Shown here piece by piece: positions 1,916 through 22,349 of a DNA stretch of 32,000 nt. The notes under the pieces are model-generated. The model saw nothing but the letters and a program-made list of their open reading frames with translations. It searched no databases and was not told the origin of the DNA. This DNA is from an uncultured archaeon (GTDB lineage Archaea > Micrarchaeota > Micrarchaeia > Micrarchaeales > CABMGC01), in the NCBI GenBank assembly GCA_963704435.1, contig OY969902.1:480001-512000 (forward strand). Reading direction: 5' to 3'. Both the position numbers and the translations under genes were made by a program. Position 1 is the first letter of the stretch, and every line of letters starts with the position of its first letter.

Positions 1916-2113
1916 GTGTGCCAAGTGCTAGTGGGTAGGGTAACGGAAGTTAGGGGAACTTCCATAACCGTCGAGAGGGAAGGGAGGCTGGAGGAGCTGA
2001 ATGCGAAGCTGGTCACAGTCGGGGATGGCGATTATGTCACTTTCTCAAAAGGCATGGCCATAGAAAAGATCGACAAGGAAGAAGCCGATATGCTGCTGGG
2101 GAATTTCGAATGA
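1916..2113 (+). CDS. hypC: [NiFe]-hydrogenase maturation chaperone HypC/HupF family
   Basis: 65 aa. A GTG start gives the N-terminal Met-Cys that is diagnostic for HypC. The rest matches the HypC pattern: ..VGRVTEV.. and GDGDYVTFSKGMAIEKIDKEEA. The stop overlaps the next start (ATGA). Confidence 0.75.
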   Translation: MCQVLVGRVTEVRGTSITVEREGRLEELNAKLVTVGDGDYVTFSKGMAIEKIDKEEADMLLGNFE

Positions 2114-2721
2114 GCGCGATAAAAATAGACTCCGCGGCAATACCGCTGCTCGTAAACTACGGCCTTGGCTGCGTCAATGACCTGGTCAGGGAAGGTTTCA
2201 TTACTCCGGAGCGCGCTAAAAGCCTGGTCAACCGCGCCTTCGCCGATGAACCGCTGACTCTTGCCGACGCCCGCAGTTTCAGGAACGCGTATGTCAAGTG
2301 CACGATTCTGGCGTCAAAGATGGGCAAGGGCTCGATAGATACGGAGGTCGTAAGGACATATTTCCTCGACCCGTCCCAGCACAACAGCTACGTCGACCGC
2401 CTCTGGGAGGCTACGAAAGACTTCGACCGCGAGGGCTGCAAAAGTGGGATTGGAACTATTCGTAAGCTGGATGAGAGATCGGTGGTGGTGGCCATAGATT
2501 TCGGCGGCGGACCCCGCCTGCGGACCTATGCCAGCCACATGAAAGGCCTGCGTATGGGTGACGACGTGGCGGTCCACGCAGGATACGTCGCGGAAGGCAT
2601 GTCGAAAGAGCTTGCGGACCTGGTCTCCAGGCTGAAGAGCGCAGATTCCGCGCAGAGAGACTTGCTGCTCGGGGTGTTCAAATCGAAGGACGGAAAGGAA
2701 AAGAAGCGAATAAGGTCCTGA
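2110..2721 (+). CDS. Two-domain protein: unknown ~110-aa N-terminal domain plus C-terminal HypC/HupF-like domain
   Basis: Residues ~111-175 (CKSGIGTIRKLDERSVVVAIDFGG...GLRMGDDVAVHAGYVAEGMSKELADLV) follow the HypC pattern (C-x3-x-G-x-V... GDxVxVHxGxA..). I recognise no family for the N-terminal part. Confidence 0.5.
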   Translation: MSAIKIDSAAIPLLVNYGLGCVNDLVREGFITPERAKSLVNRAFADEPLTLADARSFRNAYVKCTILASKMGKGSIDTEVVRTYFLDPSQHNSYVDRLWEATKDFDREGCKSGIGTIRKLDERSVVVAIDFGGGPRLRTYASHMKGLRMGDDVAVHAGYVAEGMSKELADLVSRLKSADSAQRDLLLGVFKSKDGKEKKRIRS

Positions 2722-2735
2722 TCTTCGGAAATCCG

Positions 2736-3089
2736 ATGGTCGATAAGGACAGCATGCCGCTCAGGCTGATGCGAAGCCTCAGCAGAGAATTCCCACAGAT
2801 AGCGTTCAAGGAGTTCGACCCGAACGAGAACCTTGAGCGCGAAGGGAGGGACCTGAACATAATAGACGCGGTTGAGGGAATCGACAGGGTCACCTTGATA
2901 ACGGACATCGGTATGATAAGGACCCAGAAGGCGGTGTCGATGCACGATTTCGACCTCGGCCACACTCTTAAGCTGCTGAAGAAATTGAATTACATAGATT
3001 CGGTAAGGATATTCGGGGTTCCGATGGGGATAAGCGAGAAGGAAGCCCTGGAGCAGCTCGGCTCCCTCATTCGTGCCAATTTACTCTGA
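2736..3089 (+). CDS. [NiFe]-hydrogenase maturation endopeptidase (HycI/HybD/FrhD family). The conserved N-terminus extends upstream of the first ATG to at least 2712.
   Basis: Motifs: (KVLIFGN)PMVDKDSMPL = GNxxxxDDxxG region; NIIDAVEG = second metal-ligand Asp region; VSMHDFDL = His ligand region. The bracketed residues are encoded at 2712-2732, in frame, with no ATG/GTG/TTG between the upstream stop (2559-2561) and 2736. Confidence 0.75.
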   Translation: MVDKDSMPLRLMRSLSREFPQIAFKEFDPNENLEREGRDLNIIDAVEGIDRVTLITDIGMIRTQKAVSMHDFDLGHTLKLLKKLNYIDSVRIFGVPMGISEKEALEQLGSLIRANLL

Positions 3090-4362
3090 GGAAGTGGCTC
3101 GCGCAGCTCATGCACGGGTCGTAGGCCCTTATCATCTTCTCCATCTCGAACTCGAGCTGCTTCTTGTCCTTCCCGATGTTGGCCTCCACGGTCTGCACTA
3201 TCGTCTTCTCCATGCAGATCTGGTTCTGCTGGGTGGGCACGATTATGTTGCCGTACGCGATCTTGCCGGTCTTGTCTATCGTGACCATGTAGTAGAGCAT
3301 GCCCCTCGGTGCCTCCACGAGGCCGATGCCCTCGCCCTCCTTTATCGTCGCGTGCGGAACCTGCTCATCCTTGAACTCGTTTGACTCGAGCAGCTCTATC
3401 GAATGGTCTATGCTGTGCAGCAGCTCTATCGACTGCGCGAGGTTGTTGTGGTATATGTTCTTCGAGGGGAAGGCGCTAATGTACTTGGCGGCGTCCCTCC
3501 TGGTGTCCGCATGGAGGTTCCCCCTGTTGAGGTTCATCCTCGCCAGCGCTCCGACCATGAACTCCCTGCCTTCGAAGTTGTAGCCCGTCGCCTCGGAGTA
3601 GGGTATGACCACCTTGTCGAGATAGTCCCTGTACCTGCTCTCTGGGATGACCGCGCCCCGCGTATCGTTGATGACGCCGTTGATGAAGGAATAGTCCTTC
3701 GTGACCAGCGATACGAAGTCCGTGTCGCGCTCGAGCCTGAAATCCGAGTTGTAGAACAAGTCGGTGAGCTCTATCACGTGGCCCCTTACCGATTTCAGCT
3801 CTGCGATCAGCTTCTTGACGTCTTCCGGGTCGGGTATGTGTGAGAACCTGCCCACTTCCGCGAATGTCGCATGCACCGCCCTTCCGGCTATGACCTTCGA
3901 GAGGTCGTTCCCCGCGCCCTTTATCGCGAACGCCTTCCTCAGCAGCTCGTTCTGCGTATCGTCGAAATCGAGGACAGAGTCCTTCCCCAAGATGTCGGGG
4001 AGGCTGAACAGGTAGAGGTGGAGGGCGTGGTCCCTTATCATCATGCCGTACATCGAGAGCTTCCTGAGCAGCAGCGTCTGGTCGGTGAGCTCGCAGCCTA
4101 TGGCCCTCTCTATCGCCTCCGAGCAGCACGTGAGGTGCGCTATGCTGCACGTCCCGCATATCCTGGAGGTGAGCAGCGGTAGCGCGACGGCGGACTTGCC
4201 CCTTATCGCCTGCGTGTAGAACCTCTTGCTCTCGGTTATCTTCAGCTTGACGTACTTGACCTTGTTGTCCTTTATCTTTATGTCGAGGCTGCCGTGTCCC
4301 TCTATCTTGCTCAGGTTGTCAAGGCGTATCTCCTCGCCCTTGTCCTTATGCATGGATAACAC
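3067..4362 (-). CDS. [NiFe]-hydrogenase large (catalytic) subunit, group-3-like
   Basis: N-terminal KIEGHG. Ni-Fe ligand motifs RICGTC (C69/C72) and DPCMSCASH (C417/C420/H423), followed by an 8-aa tail FLRVNWHE typical of a protease-cleaved extension. 431 aa. An alternative start lies at 4353. Confidence 0.9.
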   Translation of the reverse strand: MLSMHKDKGEEIRLDNLSKIEGHGSLDIKIKDNKVKYVKLKITESKRFYTQAIRGKSAVALPLLTSRICGTCSIAHLTCCSEAIERAIGCELTDQTLLLRKLSMYGMMIRDHALHLYLFSLPDILGKDSVLDFDDTQNELLRKAFAIKGAGNDLSKVIAGRAVHATFAEVGRFSHIPDPEDVKKLIAELKSVRGHVIELTDLFYNSDFRLERDTDFVSLVTKDYSFINGVINDTRGAVIPESRYRDYLDKVVIPYSEATGYNFEGREFMVGALARMNLNRGNLHADTRRDAAKYISAFPSKNIYHNNLAQSIELLHSIDHSIELLESNEFKDEQVPHATIKEGEGIGLVEAPRGMLYYMVTIDKTGKIAYGNIIVPTQQNQICMEKTIVQTVEANIGKDKKQLEFEMEKMIRAYDPCMSCASHFLRVNWHE

Positions 4363-4834
4363 CGAACTCCTTCAGGTACTTGTCCAGCGCCCTCATGAAG
4401 GCGCCCTCGTCCATCGGGCAGCCTGGGATATCGTCGTCGACCTGCACGATCTCCTTCAGCGACCTCACCCTTTCGGTCTGCTTGAACCTCTTGACCAGGA
4501 AGTCTATCTCCCCCCTCAGCTCAGTATCGAACATGTTCCTCTGCCCCGACGGCATCGCCTCGATGGCGCAAGACCCGACGGCCACCAGCCTCTTCGAGTT
4601 CTTCCGTATGGACCTGAGCCTCTTGGCGTCCGCCTCGGTCGTTATCGCCCCTTCGACGAAAGCGACGTCTATGTTCGCGAGCGAGTTGTTCCTCCTCAGG
4701 ACCCTCGCGTGCCTTATGTCAAGCAGGTCCTTCCACTTGAAGTAGTTCTCGTTCATCAGCTCCACCCAGACCATCGTGCTGTCTTCGCAGCAGGTGAAGG
4801 AGAACCAGCCTATCTTTAGCTTCTTTCCGGTCAC
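4346..4834 (-). CDS. [NiFe]-hydrogenase small subunit, minimal single-cluster form (162 aa)
   Basis: NuoB/20-kDa-type fold signature: KIGWFSFTCCEDS, IDVAFVEGAI, LVAVGSCAIEA, IPGCPMD. It has exactly four Cys (15, 16, 89, 139). It overlaps the large-subunit start. Confidence 0.8.
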   Translation of the reverse strand: MTGKKLKIGWFSFTCCEDSTMVWVELMNENYFKWKDLLDIRHARVLRRNNSLANIDVAFVEGAITTEADAKRLRSIRKNSKRLVAVGSCAIEAMPSGQRNMFDTELRGEIDFLVKRFKQTERVRSLKEIVQVDDDIPGCPMDEGAFMRALDKYLKEFGVIHA

Positions 4835-4958: not shown

Positions 4959-5768
4959 TTGGAGAAACCTTACGTCGGAGTCACAGGACCCACCTCACGC
5001 CAGGAAGTTTCCTCGGTCGTATCTGCCTTCAACGACAACTGCTTCAACATGCTCTACTCGCCGCACATGCCGATGCTTGGATTCCTAGTGTCGTACAAGA
5101 CTCTCGCGCAGGGACGGAATCCCGGAAATCTGCGATACCCGGAGCTTAGTGACCTGTCGCCCCTTCTCGAGGCTGCCAAGGACAAGGCGTTCGTGACGAT
5201 ACACTACAACACCAGGAACAGGGAGGGGCTCAGCGATGAGGTGCATGCGCTGCTCGAGCACGATAAGATAAGCGAGAGGGAACTGTGTGACGGGCTGCAG
5301 CTCAACGTCACGTGGCCCGATCCGGTCCAGGTAAGGGAGATAAAAGACAGGTATCCCGAGCTCAAGCTGATAATATCGCTCTCCAGAGACGCGATGGGGC
5401 TGCCGGCCAACCCGATTCCTCCAAAGGAGATTGCGGAGCGGGCGTCGGTATATTCGGATGCTGCGGACTATGTCCTCGTTGACCCTTCTGGCGGGTGGGG
5501 GATACCGTTCGATGCCGATCACGCTGCCAGCGTATACGAAGCGCTTTCGGACTACGTTCCTGCTGCGATAGGTTTTGCGGGAGGGCTTTCCGGGGAGAAC
5601 GCGAGAGAGACTGTCTCCAGGCTCAGCGAAGCGCTGGGCTCGGTGGATTTCTCGATAGACGCGGAGAGCTTGCTCAGGGACCCTGTGGGGCCAGGCTACG
5701 GAAACGACATCCTAAACCAGGGCAAGGTGCACTCCTACCTGACCGGCGTGTCCCGCGTCCTTCGCTGA
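4959..5768 (+). CDS. Phosphoribosylanthranilate isomerase (TrpF)-like TIM-barrel protein
   Basis: Pattern resembles PRAI: YVGVTG near the N-terminus, LQLNV, VLVDPSGGWGIPFD, IGFAGGLSGENA, DFSIDAES. TTG start. No other trp genes are nearby. Confidence 0.4.
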   Translation: MEKPYVGVTGPTSRQEVSSVVSAFNDNCFNMLYSPHMPMLGFLVSYKTLAQGRNPGNLRYPELSDLSPLLEAAKDKAFVTIHYNTRNREGLSDEVHALLEHDKISERELCDGLQLNVTWPDPVQVREIKDRYPELKLIISLSRDAMGLPANPIPPKEIAERASVYSDAADYVLVDPSGGWGIPFDADHAASVYEALSDYVPAAIGFAGGLSGENARETVSRLSEALGSVDFSIDAESLLRDPVGPGYGNDILNQGKVHSYLTGVSRVLR

Positions 5769-20573: not shown

Positions 20574-21203
20574 TCAGTAGGGACTCTCAAGCCTCTTCAG
20601 ATGAACCATCGGCTTGTACTTCTCGACAAAGCCCTTGACATCAACCCTTGTGCGCTCGTCATACCTGCCAAGGTAGCCTCCAAGCCTGCGCAAATCGATT
20701 GCGGAGAGGATGCCGCTGTAGCTCTGGACCGAAAGCCTCACGTTATAGTAAAAGAGGTCTATCAATGTCTTCTCGGGATCGGATACTGGCACAGAGAATT
20801 TCCCGTATCTGACCGTGCCAAACCCGAAGAAGTACTTGGCGGGCACGTGGTGAAGGAATATGACGTCATCCGCATCACCGAAGACCGTCGTTCTTGATGA
20901 CCTGACTCTCTTCATGGTCATCACATCCGGCCTCGAATGCTGCGTCCACAGGCCGCGCATCGTCAGCGCGGAGAGGAGGCCGTAGTAGAAGGGCGCGTAC
21001 GCGAAGCCTGCTACGGCATCGTCCTTTGTAGCCGAATAAACTCCCTTTTTTATGGAGTATATTCTTCCGCTGGTTTTTAGATAGGACAGAACTCTTGCGA
21101 TATCCGGCTTCTGCCCGGCACCTCGCAGGTACAGTTCTACGTCCCTGTACGTAAACGTCGGGTAGGAGGAGAACTTCTCAAGTATGAGCTTACCCGGCTT
21201 CAT
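20574..21203 (-). CDS. AbiEi-like antitoxin / COG5340-type transcriptional regulator
   Basis: 209 aa. N-terminal wHTH-like region (..FTYRDVELYL...ARVLSYLKTSGRIYSIKKGVY..). It overlaps the upstream DUF1814 nucleotidyltransferase gene by 14 nt, which is the typical partner arrangement. Confidence 0.6.
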   Translation of the reverse strand: MKPGKLILEKFSSYPTFTYRDVELYLRGAGQKPDIARVLSYLKTSGRIYSIKKGVYSATKDDAVAGFAYAPFYYGLLSALTMRGLWTQHSRPDVMTMKRVRSSRTTVFGDADDVIFLHHVPAKYFFGFGTVRYGKFSVPVSDPEKTLIDLFYYNVRLSVQSYSGILSAIDLRRLGGYLGRYDERTRVDVKGFVEKYKPMVHLKRLESPY

Positions 21204-21864
21204 GCGCCCATTCCTTTATTTTCTTGACCATGAACTCGAAACTGGGGGCCGCCCCGCTCAGGATCAGGTGGTCGAGGCTGCGCACGTTGCGGGGCGGGTC
21301 CTTCTCGGCCTCCTCAATCAGGGCGGCCAGCCTTCTGGCCGTCTGAGGCTTCCTGCTGCACAGTGCGGTGAGGTGATAAATGTCATAGAAGTCCTGGACT
21401 TCGGCCTGCTTGAATCCCCCTCCGCGCCTCTTGTCTTCGCATGCCTCTATCTTCTCCTCCAAAAGTTCTTCCGGGGTCAGGGATAGCACAACCATCTTGC
21501 TCCCATCCACCCTCGTGTACTCCACAGGCGCGCCTTTCTTCGGCTTCAGGTTCAGGTCTATTTTCATCTTCGTGGTTGATTCGACAAGGAGATGCATGGT
21601 CCTGGTCTTGCCGTCATAGCCCCTTTCCTTCAGCGCAAACCCCTTATCCTTGAGGAAATCGGAAATTTCAGTGAGAAGAGGGCCTGCTTCCGTCCGACCG
21701 CCGATATAGAAATCTATGTCCCTCGAGAACCTGTTGCCTGAATAGCACCGCCATATCGCGGTCCCTCCATGAAACACGAGTTCCTTGTACTTGCCGTAGA
21801 GCAGCTCGACGAGGACGTCCTCCAGCTTTGCCTTTTCAAGTTGGTCGTCGGTCTTGAAATTCAT
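21190..21864 (-). CDS. AbiEii/AbiGii-family nucleotidyltransferase toxin (DUF1814)
   Basis: ..ELVFHGGTAIWRCYSGNRFSRDIDFY.. matches the GG(T/S)aL...RfS.DiDf NTase signature. The start is taken at MNFKTDD (21864). The track's extension to 22323 is a spurious frame across the ferredoxin gene. Confidence 0.75.
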   Translation of the reverse strand: MNFKTDDQLEKAKLEDVLVELLYGKYKELVFHGGTAIWRCYSGNRFSRDIDFYIGGRTEAGPLLTEISDFLKDKGFALKERGYDGKTRTMHLLVESTTKMKIDLNLKPKKGAPVEYTRVDGSKMVVLSLTPEELLEEKIEACEDKRRGGGFKQAEVQDFYDIYHLTALCSRKPQTARRLAALIEEAEKDPPRNVRSLDHLILSGAAPSFEFMVKKIKEWAHEAG

Positions 21865-21882
21865 GCGGGTTCCCCGAATTTG

Positions 21883-21926
21883 ATAAGTCCACTTTATTAC
21901 AGTTTTATGTAATAATATGGACTTAT
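21883..21926. promoter_or_regulatory. 44-nt near-perfect palindrome in the abiEii-abiEi promoter (candidate autoregulatory operator)
   Basis: ATAAGTCCA-CT-TTATTACA gtttta TGTAATAA-TA-TGGACTTAT: 17 of 19 arm positions are complementary. It lies 19-62 nt upstream of the toxin ATG and overlaps A/T-rich TATA-like sequence. Confidence 0.5.
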
Positions 21927-21941
21927 ATCTTAATAAACTTA

Positions 21942-21954
21942 GCGGGAAACCCGC
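21942..21954 (-). terminator. Possible terminator hairpin downstream of the ferredoxin gene
   Basis: Minus strand GCGGG-TTT-CCCGC lies 21 nt after the stop and is followed by TAAGTTTATT. Confidence 0.3.
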
Positions 21955-21974
21955 TTGACGGAACTGATTGTGCG

Positions 21975-22038
21975 CTACTTGTACACGGACTTGTACTCGT
22001 TCCCGCTGTCGTCGTGTATGACGATGCACTCGCCCTCG
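21975..22038 (-). repeat. Direct repeat copy B (functional 3' end of the ferredoxin gene)
   Basis: See copy A. The repeat starts exactly at the ferredoxin stop codon. Confidence 0.85.
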
Positions 22039-22349
22039 CACTCTATGAGGCACGCCTGGCAGAGTATGCAGGACGCTCCGTTCGTAGCGCACGACAGTCC
22101 TCCGCTGGTTCCGTCGCTCTCCTGCGCGAAGTGCCTGTGACCGTCTTCCGCATTGGACCATTTCGCGAAGTCGTCCGGGTCGATCTTCCCGGTCCACTGG
22201 TGCTCCGCCGGCGCGGTGTCCGAGTTCGCCCCGTCCGCGTTGGGGTTCTCCTTCGTGCCCCTGCCCTTCATCTCGTAGACGCCCACGGGGCAGACGTCCC
22301 TGCAGTGCTGGCATCCTGTGCACCTCTCCTTCTCGACATACACGTCCAT
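21975..22349 (-). CDS. 2x[4Fe-4S] ferredoxin-type protein with a long acidic insert between the cluster motifs
   Basis: CTGCQHCRDVCP (CxxCxxCxxxCP) at residues 10-21 and CILCQACLIEC (CxxCxxCxxxC) at residues 95-105, separated by about 70 residues. Confidence 0.75.
   Translation of the reverse strand: MDVYVEKERCTGCQHCRDVCPVGVYEMKGRGTKENPNADGANSDTAPAEHQWTGKIDPDDFAKWSNAEDGHRHFAQESDGTSGGLSCATNGASCILCQACLIECEGECIVIHDDSGNEYKSVYK

Follow-up and report, generated by a model that had tools for sequence, protein, structure and literature searches.

What does a [NiFe]-hydrogenase exchange electrons with when only its two core subunits are encoded side by side? This question is raised by a locus at positions 1916-4834 of a 32,000-nucleotide stretch of DNA from an uncultured archaeon of the Micrarchaeota (GenBank assembly GCA_963704435.1, contig OY969902.1, positions 480,001 to 512,000), which is referred to here in its entirety as the window. 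On the minus strand, the locus carries genes for a large, catalytic subunit of 431 amino acids (aa) (3067-4362; Pfam NiFeSe_Hases, E 5e-28) and for a minimal small subunit of 162 aa with a GTG start codon (4346-4834; Pfam Oxidored_q6, E 2e-16), and on the plus strand it carries three genes with predicted roles in maturation. Open reading frame (ORF) mapping together with Pfam and NCBIfam scans returned the same hydrogenase genes at the same positions as those listed in an earlier note on this DNA. The explanation that we favor, and to which we give an even chance of being correct in full, is that the product of the locus is a heterodimeric, cytosolic [NiFe]-hydrogenase of minimal composition, derived from group 3b and of the type named hyd2 in bacteria of the Candidate Phyla Radiation (CPR), that is linked to ferredoxin or to an oxidoreductase and acts as a reversible, H2-evolving electron sink. 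Statements on function are drawn throughout from sequence, gene context and precedent.

The large subunit looks catalytically intact, as the earlier note had judged, with the predicted active-site motifs KIEGHG, RICGTCSIAH and DPCMSCASH all in place and the last of these followed by an eight-residue tail, FLRVNWHE, that is the inferred substrate of the endopeptidase encoded convergently to this gene. A start at Met4 would shorten the protein to 428 aa. The L1 and L2 motifs were each present in about 116-119 of 120 homologues, and both were present in all 71 copies of at least 380 aa recovered from related loci, while the length of the C-terminal tail varied from 7 to 11 aa across the family. 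The best 120 of a larger total of homologues were 59-93% identical to the window copy, and those with a taxonomic name derived from Micrarchaeota or Aenigmatarchaeota; NCBI contig JBLFLA010262885.1 and a contig of 853 kb encode an identical large subunit. Scores against NCBIfam models were highest for the sulfhydrogenase subunits ShyA (272 bits) and HydA (236 bits), compared to 135 bits for VhuA/FrhA, although neither equivalog cutoff (700 and 880 bits, respectively) was reached. The best match in the PDB was the alpha subunit of Pyrococcus furiosus soluble hydrogenase I (SHI), at 224 bits, followed by MvhA (142 bits) and HoxH (118 bits). Group 4 large subunits were absent from the 60 PDB matches listed, as were group 4 and NuoD models from the NCBIfam matches.

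The small subunit contains the motifs FTCCEDS, GSCA and PGCP, from which Cys15, Cys16, Cys89 and Cys139 are predicted to ligate a proximal [4Fe-4S] cluster, the only cluster site in the protein. It aligned with residues 1-154 alone of the 261-residue HydD model, remained far from the equivalog cutoffs of HydD (57 vs 500 bits) and ShyD (46 vs 460 bits), and matched SHI delta at 50 bits. An AlphaFold2 (AF2) model of the subunit (pLDDT 93.6, pTM 0.89) was compared with known structures by Foldseek and superimposed on P. furiosus SHI delta across the N-terminal half of that protein (TMq 0.81, TMt 0.53), as well as on the whole of HoxY from group 3d (5xf9_C) and of HydS from the bifurcating hydrogenase NiFe-HydABCSL (7t2r_E), both with TMq 0.81 and TMt 0.74. 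The group 3 value of 0.81 compares with TMq 0.61 for MbhJ and about 0.55-0.60 for NuoB. Because the HydD alignment and the structural matches agree, the description of this enzyme in the earlier note as a heterodimer with a proximal cluster only is well founded, and the model indicates that the small subunit is reduced to the flavodoxin-like domain that would hold this cluster. All of the best 120 homologues were short as well (120/120, mostly 160-168 aa), the mean column identity for the small subunit was 75%, and an invariant, family-specific motif, MPxxQRNxF, follows the cluster-binding GSCA. The public record starts the protein at Met27 (136 aa; L001:9598-10008), which removes Cys15 and Cys16. 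Homologue alignments favor the 162-aa form starting from the GTG at 4834, in which residues 1-26 are encoded by 4757-4834.

The N-terminal ligand motif is unusual, and it is so across the family. The sequence CC-E-D-S (residues 15-19; 4778-4792) replaces the canonical CxxC of the proximal cluster, such that in an alignment to SHI delta a serine occupies the position of the second canonical cysteine and an extra cysteine precedes the first. The motif [TSA]CCEDS[TS] was present in ~68 of the 74 species-level loci in which it could be read, and CSEDS, with one of the two cysteines only, in the other 6/74. Among the best 120 homologues, the CSEDS form occurred in 10 (about 8%), the first cysteine being the one that is kept, and one Aenigmatarchaeota small subunit (L006) has TSDEGCS at this position. 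The small subunit of a tetrameric outgroup (L088) carries the canonical GCEGC. A shift of cysteines of the same kind sets NuoB apart from hydrogenase small subunits, and CC-E-D-S resembles the tandem-cysteine ligation of cluster N2 in NuoB.

A diaphorase, FrhB, an MvhD/Hdr-type partner or a membrane module adjacent to the hydrogenase had been reported missing by the earlier note, and none was found in the 32-kb window or in the ~8 kb past its left end (~40 kb), which is the span that the partner-gene search around this copy covered; NuoE/F-like genes were likewise absent from the window. Scanning GTDB with one genome per species identified at least 383 species-level DPANN or CPR genomes that carry the same two-gene enzyme. 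The best 80 loci (52-83% identity) derive from Micrarchaeia, Woesearchaeia, Aenigmatarchaeia, Iainarchaeia and Nanoarchaeia and from the CPR phyla Gottesmanbacteria, Chisholmbacteria, Moranibacteria, Peregrinibacteria, Uhrbacteria, Saccharibacteria and Microgenomates, and the CPR small subunits of this layout are 52-60% identical to the window copy. When crude ORFs from 81 loci were clustered into families, the recurrent neighbors were the large subunit (77), the small subunit (at least 61), the endopeptidase (62) and an EamA-type membrane protein (48, among L009-L086), and a beta- or gamma-like family was absent from 81/81 of these neighborhoods. The absence of partner genes is shared by the clade as a whole and is no accident of assembly.

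The phylogeny of the large subunit appears to set this enzyme apart from canonical group 3b. A neighbor-joining tree was built from 197 large subunits, comprising 71 from loci (including the window copy) and a set of representatives at 50% identity that contains Thermococcus SHI alpha (P0369); with no group 3a, 3c, 3d or 4 references included, it separates the family and is not informative on deeper nodes or internal order. All minimal-type large subunits formed one clade (91/100 bootstrap) with Thermococcus SHI alpha outside it, and sequences from Gottesmanbacteria, Chisholmbacteria, Moranibacteria, Peregrinibacteria, Uhrbacteria and Saccharibacteria fell within this same clade. The window copy belonged to a Micrarchaeota subclade of 21 members (100/100). 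As judged from these sequences, the window enzyme thus lies within a well-supported clade of DPANN and CPR enzymes that lacks an NAD(P)H module. The outgroups indicate how the minimal form relates to classical enzymes. In the closest (P0249, L087), the small subunit is also truncated at its C-terminus and the canonical CEGC is kept. The next (P0250, L088) encodes beta (Fer4_22), gamma (NAD_binding_1/DHODB_Fe-S_bind), a delta of 293 aa with a cysteine-rich tail, and alpha, after which come a gene of protease size, EamA, DUF6390 and HypC. Because this locus combines a classical operon with the same accessory genes, the minimal form would be sister to, or derived from, the tetrameric 3b lineage, from which it differs, as far as the predicted proteins go, by loss of beta, gamma and the outer-cluster domain. 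The EamA-type protein and DUF6390 are kept in the hydrogenase cluster of DPANN, CPR and the tetrameric outgroup alike (L088:8808-10500), and EamA is often missing in the window's own clade.

An enzyme of this layout has been described before. Jaffe et al. (2020, BMC Biol; PMC7304191) reported from CPR bacteria a 3b-related, long-branch clade, hyd2, with small subunits of 164 aa on average and hypC-like neighbors, in which gamma-like genes are neither proximal nor on the same strand, no beta-like match lies near hyd2, and the 'function remains uncertain'. The window locus resembles hyd2 in its truncated small subunit (162 vs a mean of 164 aa), its hypC-family neighbor and its lack of co-located beta and gamma, and CPR sequences of this layout share its 91/100 clade; it differs in being archaeal, as hyd2 had been described as confined to CPR. 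The window hydrogenase is, by these features, an archaeal member of a known and still uncharacterized hyd2-type kind, an equation that we infer from phyla, layout and small-subunit length. Accordingly, the suggestion of the earlier note that the locus might represent a new functional subtype is borne out insofar as the clade appears distinct from canonical 3b, but the layout itself is not new.

P. furiosus SHI, a group 3b enzyme of composition alpha-beta-gamma-delta (PDB 9nez, 5yxy), is the closest characterized relative of both subunits and has the L1 and L2 motifs, the cytosolic location and the C-terminal tail in common with the window enzyme. Unlike SHI, the window enzyme has no beta or gamma, its delta counterpart measures 162 rather than 261 aa and is devoid of the medial/distal domain, CC-E-D-S stands in place of CxxC, its scores stay well short of the NCBIfam equivalog cutoffs, and it falls in a separate clade. 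The top Foldseek match of the small-subunit model was an engineered alpha-delta dimer of SHI (PDB 9e1j, 9e15), which likewise represents a two-subunit 3b core but is man-made and contains a full-length delta (254-256 residues modeled), as opposed to the natural 162 aa here. HoxY and HydS belong to the same size class (178-179 residues) and share the same fold throughout, but pass electrons to HoxFU or HydABC modules encoded alongside, of which none is present at the window locus. Membership of group 3d was rejected, given the absence of HoxFU and NuoE/F-like genes from the window and the lower score for HoxH (118 bits vs 224 for 3b), the single-cluster small subunit being the only feature in common. 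Group 4 was also rejected, with no group 4/NuoD match among those listed, no membrane-module genes in the window and lower fold scores for MbhJ and NuoB.

The genes on the plus strand appear to constitute a dedicated maturation set. The first (1916-2113) encodes a 65-aa HypC (Pfam HupF_HypC, E 2.2e-10) that starts with Met-Cys and matches TIGR00074 at E 1e-6, which is under the cutoff of that model; hypC or a ~71-aa HypC-like gene is a recurrent neighbor in related loci. The second (2110-2721) encodes a 203-aa protein that had been labeled HypC-like, which is apt for its C-terminal HypC domain and misses an N-terminal DUF6390-type domain. While the DUF6390 match of the window copy is weak, members of its family match both HupF_HypC and DUF6390, the internal Cys110 and His156 are invariant, and the family profile matches the HypC structures 2z1c from Thermococcus kodakarensis (E 1.4e-12) and 3vyr (about 1e-12). 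This family was found in 31/81 related loci and full-length DUF6390 in 22/81, together 53/81, and DUF6390 may be an unrecognized maturation factor. The third gene (2736-3089) encodes an endopeptidase of the HycI/HybD family, 117 aa long from the ATG at 2736, whose 3' end overlaps that of the large subunit by exactly 23 nucleotides (3067-3089), as previously given. The window copy matches Pfam HycI weakly (E 0.006), but its identity as the maturation protease is settled by the matches of its relatives, as 18 of 33 family members hit this model, the best at E 7e-7, with the pattern GN...D...D...HDFDL conserved. A search of PDB sequences with the family profile returned noise only. The protease gene is convergent with the large subunit in 62/81 related loci, with a typical size of ~132 aa.

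The start of the protease gene is itself atypical. A conserved N-terminal strand, KVLIFGNP, is encoded upstream of the ATG at 2736 in an open frame that contains no ATG, GTG or TTG (2706-2740), and the true start probably lies upstream, at the CTG at 2718. This CTG (2718-2720) overlaps the TGA stop codon of the 203-aa gene (2719-2721), which suggests a non-canonical start or translational coupling of the protease. In one relative (L026), the conserved strand follows directly on the upstream stop, apparently also without an ATG, and the protease of close relatives is of the same short form. HypD, HypE and HypF were not seen in any neighborhood; conserved families of similar size near the hydrogenase proved to be a P-type ATPase, glycosyltransferases, MiaA/MiaB-like genes and others. 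In four Peregrinibacteria/Patescibacteria loci (L034, 1049-3669; L047; L053; L067), a HypC-HydE fusion and HydG, both above their NCBIfam cutoffs, are encoded directly upstream of the small subunit. HydE and HydG are maturases of [FeFe]-hydrogenases, which these phyla can carry, and their adjacency to the minimal [NiFe] genes might be incidental, although it is striking to find HypC and HydE joined in one protein. Maturation through DUF6390 and, in some CPR bacteria, HydE/HydG in place of HypDEF is a possibility.

We also considered which redox partners are encoded near the hydrogenase. The 124-aa ferredoxin at 21975-22349, put forward as a candidate by the earlier note, is a genuine 2x[4Fe-4S] protein (CxxCxxCxxxCP ... 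CxxCxxCxxxC with a ~65-aa insert), but it lies 17 kb away with an AbiEii toxin gene as its neighbor, and none of the loci L001-L088 contains a homologue of it near the hydrogenase. With 0 homologues in related loci, it was set aside as unsupported, not disproved. The long AbiEii-type ORF (21190-22349, minus strand; Pfam match to residues 179-348) overlaps the ferredoxin gene in another frame, and its true start is probably downstream of the ferredoxin stop. Other ferredoxins do occur close to relatives of the hydrogenase: a ~75-aa single-cluster ferredoxin gene lies within ~2 kb in six related loci, in most of them beside the protease, and a 2x[4Fe-4S] ferredoxin lies nearby in three further loci.

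A different partner is physically joined to the enzyme in some relatives. In three loci (L035:3677-5218, L045:2994-4487, L079:8025-9539), a flavoprotein resembling thioredoxin reductase (TrxR) is fused N-terminally to the small subunit, giving proteins of 497-513 aa (Pyr_redox_2 at 3-280, Oxidored_q6 at 350-486) encoded directly upstream of the large subunit. The protein collection contained 27 distinct fusions of this kind (P0391-P0417), the named ones mostly from Aenigmatarchaeota, as well as ~90 stand-alone homologues of ~305 aa. A stand-alone gene lies within the hydrogenase cluster at L038, L049, L061, L063 and L064, and L073 ends in a partial copy. Nearly all of these flavoproteins keep CxxCD, and none has the GGGNxA or the HRR motif for NADPH. 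The best PDB match of the stand-alone form was 5nii_A (309 aa, 177 bits), probably DvTRi, compared to ~150 bits for NADPH-dependent TrxRs. DvTRi is an NAD(P)H-independent thioredoxin reductase whose physiological reductant is still to be found (PMC5627308). The flavoprotein of the relatives resembles DvTRi and ferredoxin-dependent flavin thioredoxin reductases in keeping CxxC without NADPH motifs; it differs in that the window has no such gene, the tie running through homology of the hydrogenase only. No tblastn match to the flavoprotein was obtained in the window or L001. In related loci, no thioredoxin motif was found near the hydrogenase, and the two matches to a glutaredoxin-type CPYC are at chance level. 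In an AF2 model of the fusion (pTM 0.56), a linker of 40 residues is disordered, so the geometry between flavin adenine dinucleotide (FAD) and the cluster is not readable from it. In the literature searched, we found no published description of a hydrogenase-thioredoxin reductase fusion.

Based on the data presented above, the ferredoxin- or oxidoreductase-linked heterodimer would be assembled and operate as follows. HypC and the DUF6390-HypC protein would deliver the Fe(CN)2CO unit, nickel would go in, and the endopeptidase would cut off the eight-residue tail. During turnover, electrons would move between the Ni-Fe site and the single [4Fe-4S] cluster, which should lie near the protein surface because the domain for the medial and distal clusters is missing, and from there they could pass straight to a separately encoded low-potential partner. 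In this Micrarchaeota genome, the partner would most likely be a ferredoxin that receives its electrons from 2-oxoacid:ferredoxin oxidoreductases, or else an oxidoreductase of that kind to which the dimer docks without a carrier, and fermentation could then use the hydrogenase as a reversible sink for electrons that evolves H2. Related Micrarchaeota have been reported to possess ferredoxin-dependent 2-oxoacid oxidoreductases (PMC8561730), and a precedent exists in the engineered alpha-delta dimer of P. furiosus SHI, an active enzyme that makes no use of NADPH and to which pyruvate:ferredoxin oxidoreductase donates electrons directly (Hopkins et al. 2011, PMC3200332). Three observations weigh against this explanation. 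Within the 21-member subclade of the window copy, the hydrogenase is never flanked by a redox-partner gene (0/21), for which reason the assignment to ferredoxin is by analogy only. The only physical fusion to a partner, seen in one subclade, argues for a flavoprotein rather than a ferredoxin. Finally, the predicted N-terminal ligands are atypical, with CC-E-D-S throughout and a single cysteine in 10/120, and from these the type and potential of the cluster cannot be read.

The main rival to the ferredoxin-linked sink takes the fused partner at face value and reverses the flow: the enzyme would take up H2 and feed an NAD(P)H-independent, TrxR-like flavoprotein, with electrons passing from H2 through the Ni-Fe site, [4Fe-4S] and FAD to CxxC and on to thioredoxin or another disulfide, thereby providing an organism of reduced genome with thiol-reducing power from environmental or host H2. 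The fusions of Pyr_redox_2 to the small subunit, the stand-alone genes within hydrogenase clusters, the retention of CxxCD without NADPH motifs and the higher score of 5nii_A are all consistent with this, as is the occurrence of an HxlR-type regulator and of NrdD/NrdG beside the hydrogenase in several Micrarchaeota relatives. Nevertheless, the gene is missing from the window and L001, its linkage is limited to one 16-member subclade and one divergent case, no thioredoxin gene is adjacent, the fusion model with its disordered linker shows no electron-transfer geometry, and 5nii is no more than probably DvTRi; we therefore regard this proposal as unlikely for the window enzyme. We consider it quite unlikely that the dimer dispenses with a soluble carrier altogether and docks on a ferredoxin-dependent oxidoreductase of the POR/OFOR type, drawing electrons from its Fe-S chain. 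The engineered SHI dimer does so in vitro, loss of the medial/distal domain would expose the proximal cluster, and MPxxQRNxF could provide an invariant surface motif specific to the family, but no oxidoreductase gene is conserved beside the hydrogenase and the SHI dimer kept three clusters, so that its geometry differs.

The conventional alternative, a regular group 3b enzyme coupled to NADPH, with beta and gamma encoded at another place in the genome, draws on the best sequence and structure matches, which are to sulfhydrogenase alpha and delta, on its classification in DPANN genome papers, and on the reach of our beta/gamma search, which extended over the window and ~8 kb of the genome. It is hard to reconcile with the small subunit, which lacks the cysteine-rich C-terminal domain of SHI here and in every relative, with the nearest clade that does have beta and gamma, where they are adjacent and accompanied by a full-length delta, and with the hyd2 genomes of Jaffe et al., where gamma-like genes are not proximal or on the same strand and no beta-like match is nearby (PMC7304191), and we consider it very unlikely. 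That the locus is a remnant left in a reduced genome, either in decay or without catalytic function (as in an H2 sensor), is highly improbable in our assessment. The protease gene, with its conserved N-terminus lacking a canonical start codon, and the atypical proximal-cluster ligands might suggest decay, but close relatives share the short protease form, no metal-binding motif has been lost, the cleavable tail and three maturation genes are still in place, and conservation is strong in both subunits (59-93% identity over the best 120 large subunits, 75% mean column identity for the small subunit). Moreover, to our knowledge, sensory hydrogenases have neither the C-terminal tail nor the protease.

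These results bear on how such genomes are read. Papers on Micrarchaeota and Aenigmarchaeota genomes list the enzyme as 'group 3b' and take it to be NADPH-coupled, and DPANN papers using HydDB, which defines group 3b as NADP-coupled, report '3b' for related genomes; DPANN and CPR genome papers routinely base fermentation models on this reading. On the evidence above, it is unsafe. Neither the NAD(P)H module nor the two outer Fe-S clusters occur anywhere in the clade, which leaves the redox partner, the direction and the physiological role of the enzyme open. On its predicted composition, the window enzyme is probably not an NADPH-coupled sulfhydrogenase in the characterized group 3b sense. At about 590 residues in two chains, it would be one of the smallest natural [NiFe]-hydrogenases, which makes it attractive as a minimal catalyst. 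The flavoprotein fusions supply a concrete and testable partner hypothesis, also for the reductant of NAD(P)H-independent thioredoxin reductases. As a speculation that we think improbable, hyd2-type minimal hydrogenases, with the window enzyme among them, might not use NAD(P)H in any form and could constitute a new functional class in which a single tandem-cysteine proximal cluster is wired directly to non-nicotinamide acceptors, with the fused Aenigmatarchaeota forms acting as hydrogen:thioredoxin (disulfide) oxidoreductases and the Micrarchaeota forms using the same flavoprotein or a ferredoxin encoded elsewhere. If this is true, H2, through the hydrogenase, would be the physiological reductant of orphan NAD(P)H-independent thioredoxin reductases.

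Several further observations concern the surroundings of the hydrogenase. The gene divergent from the small subunit (4959-5768, plus strand) encodes a 269-aa protein without family assignment, and the label 'TrpF-like' given to it earlier has as its sole basis a sub-threshold PRAI (TrpF) match (E 0.026) spanning residues 162-232. A copy with 46% identity lies ~2 kb from the hydrogenase in L008 only. Genes of ~270 aa also stand beside the small subunit in L004 and L006, but these proteins are unrelated to that of the window (24% and 13% identity), and the shared position was dismissed as coincidence. In many Micrarchaeota (L004, L005, L015, L019-L022, L024), an HxlR-type regulator together with NrdD and NrdG is encoded beside the small subunit; none of the three is found in the window, and their proximity may reflect synteny within the lineage or hint at a thiol-redox link. 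A P-type metal ATPase with a YHS domain is encoded near the hydrogenase in L038, L049, L063, L064 and L081, mostly together with the TrxR-like flavoprotein gene, and a DsbA-like Thioredoxin_4 protein in a second, overlapping set of loci (L038, L039, L051, L075, L084). Genes in the rest of the window mark the DNA as archaeal and encode ribosomal proteins, RNA polymerase (split B and A subunits), PAC2, DUF373, Trm5 and GrpE.

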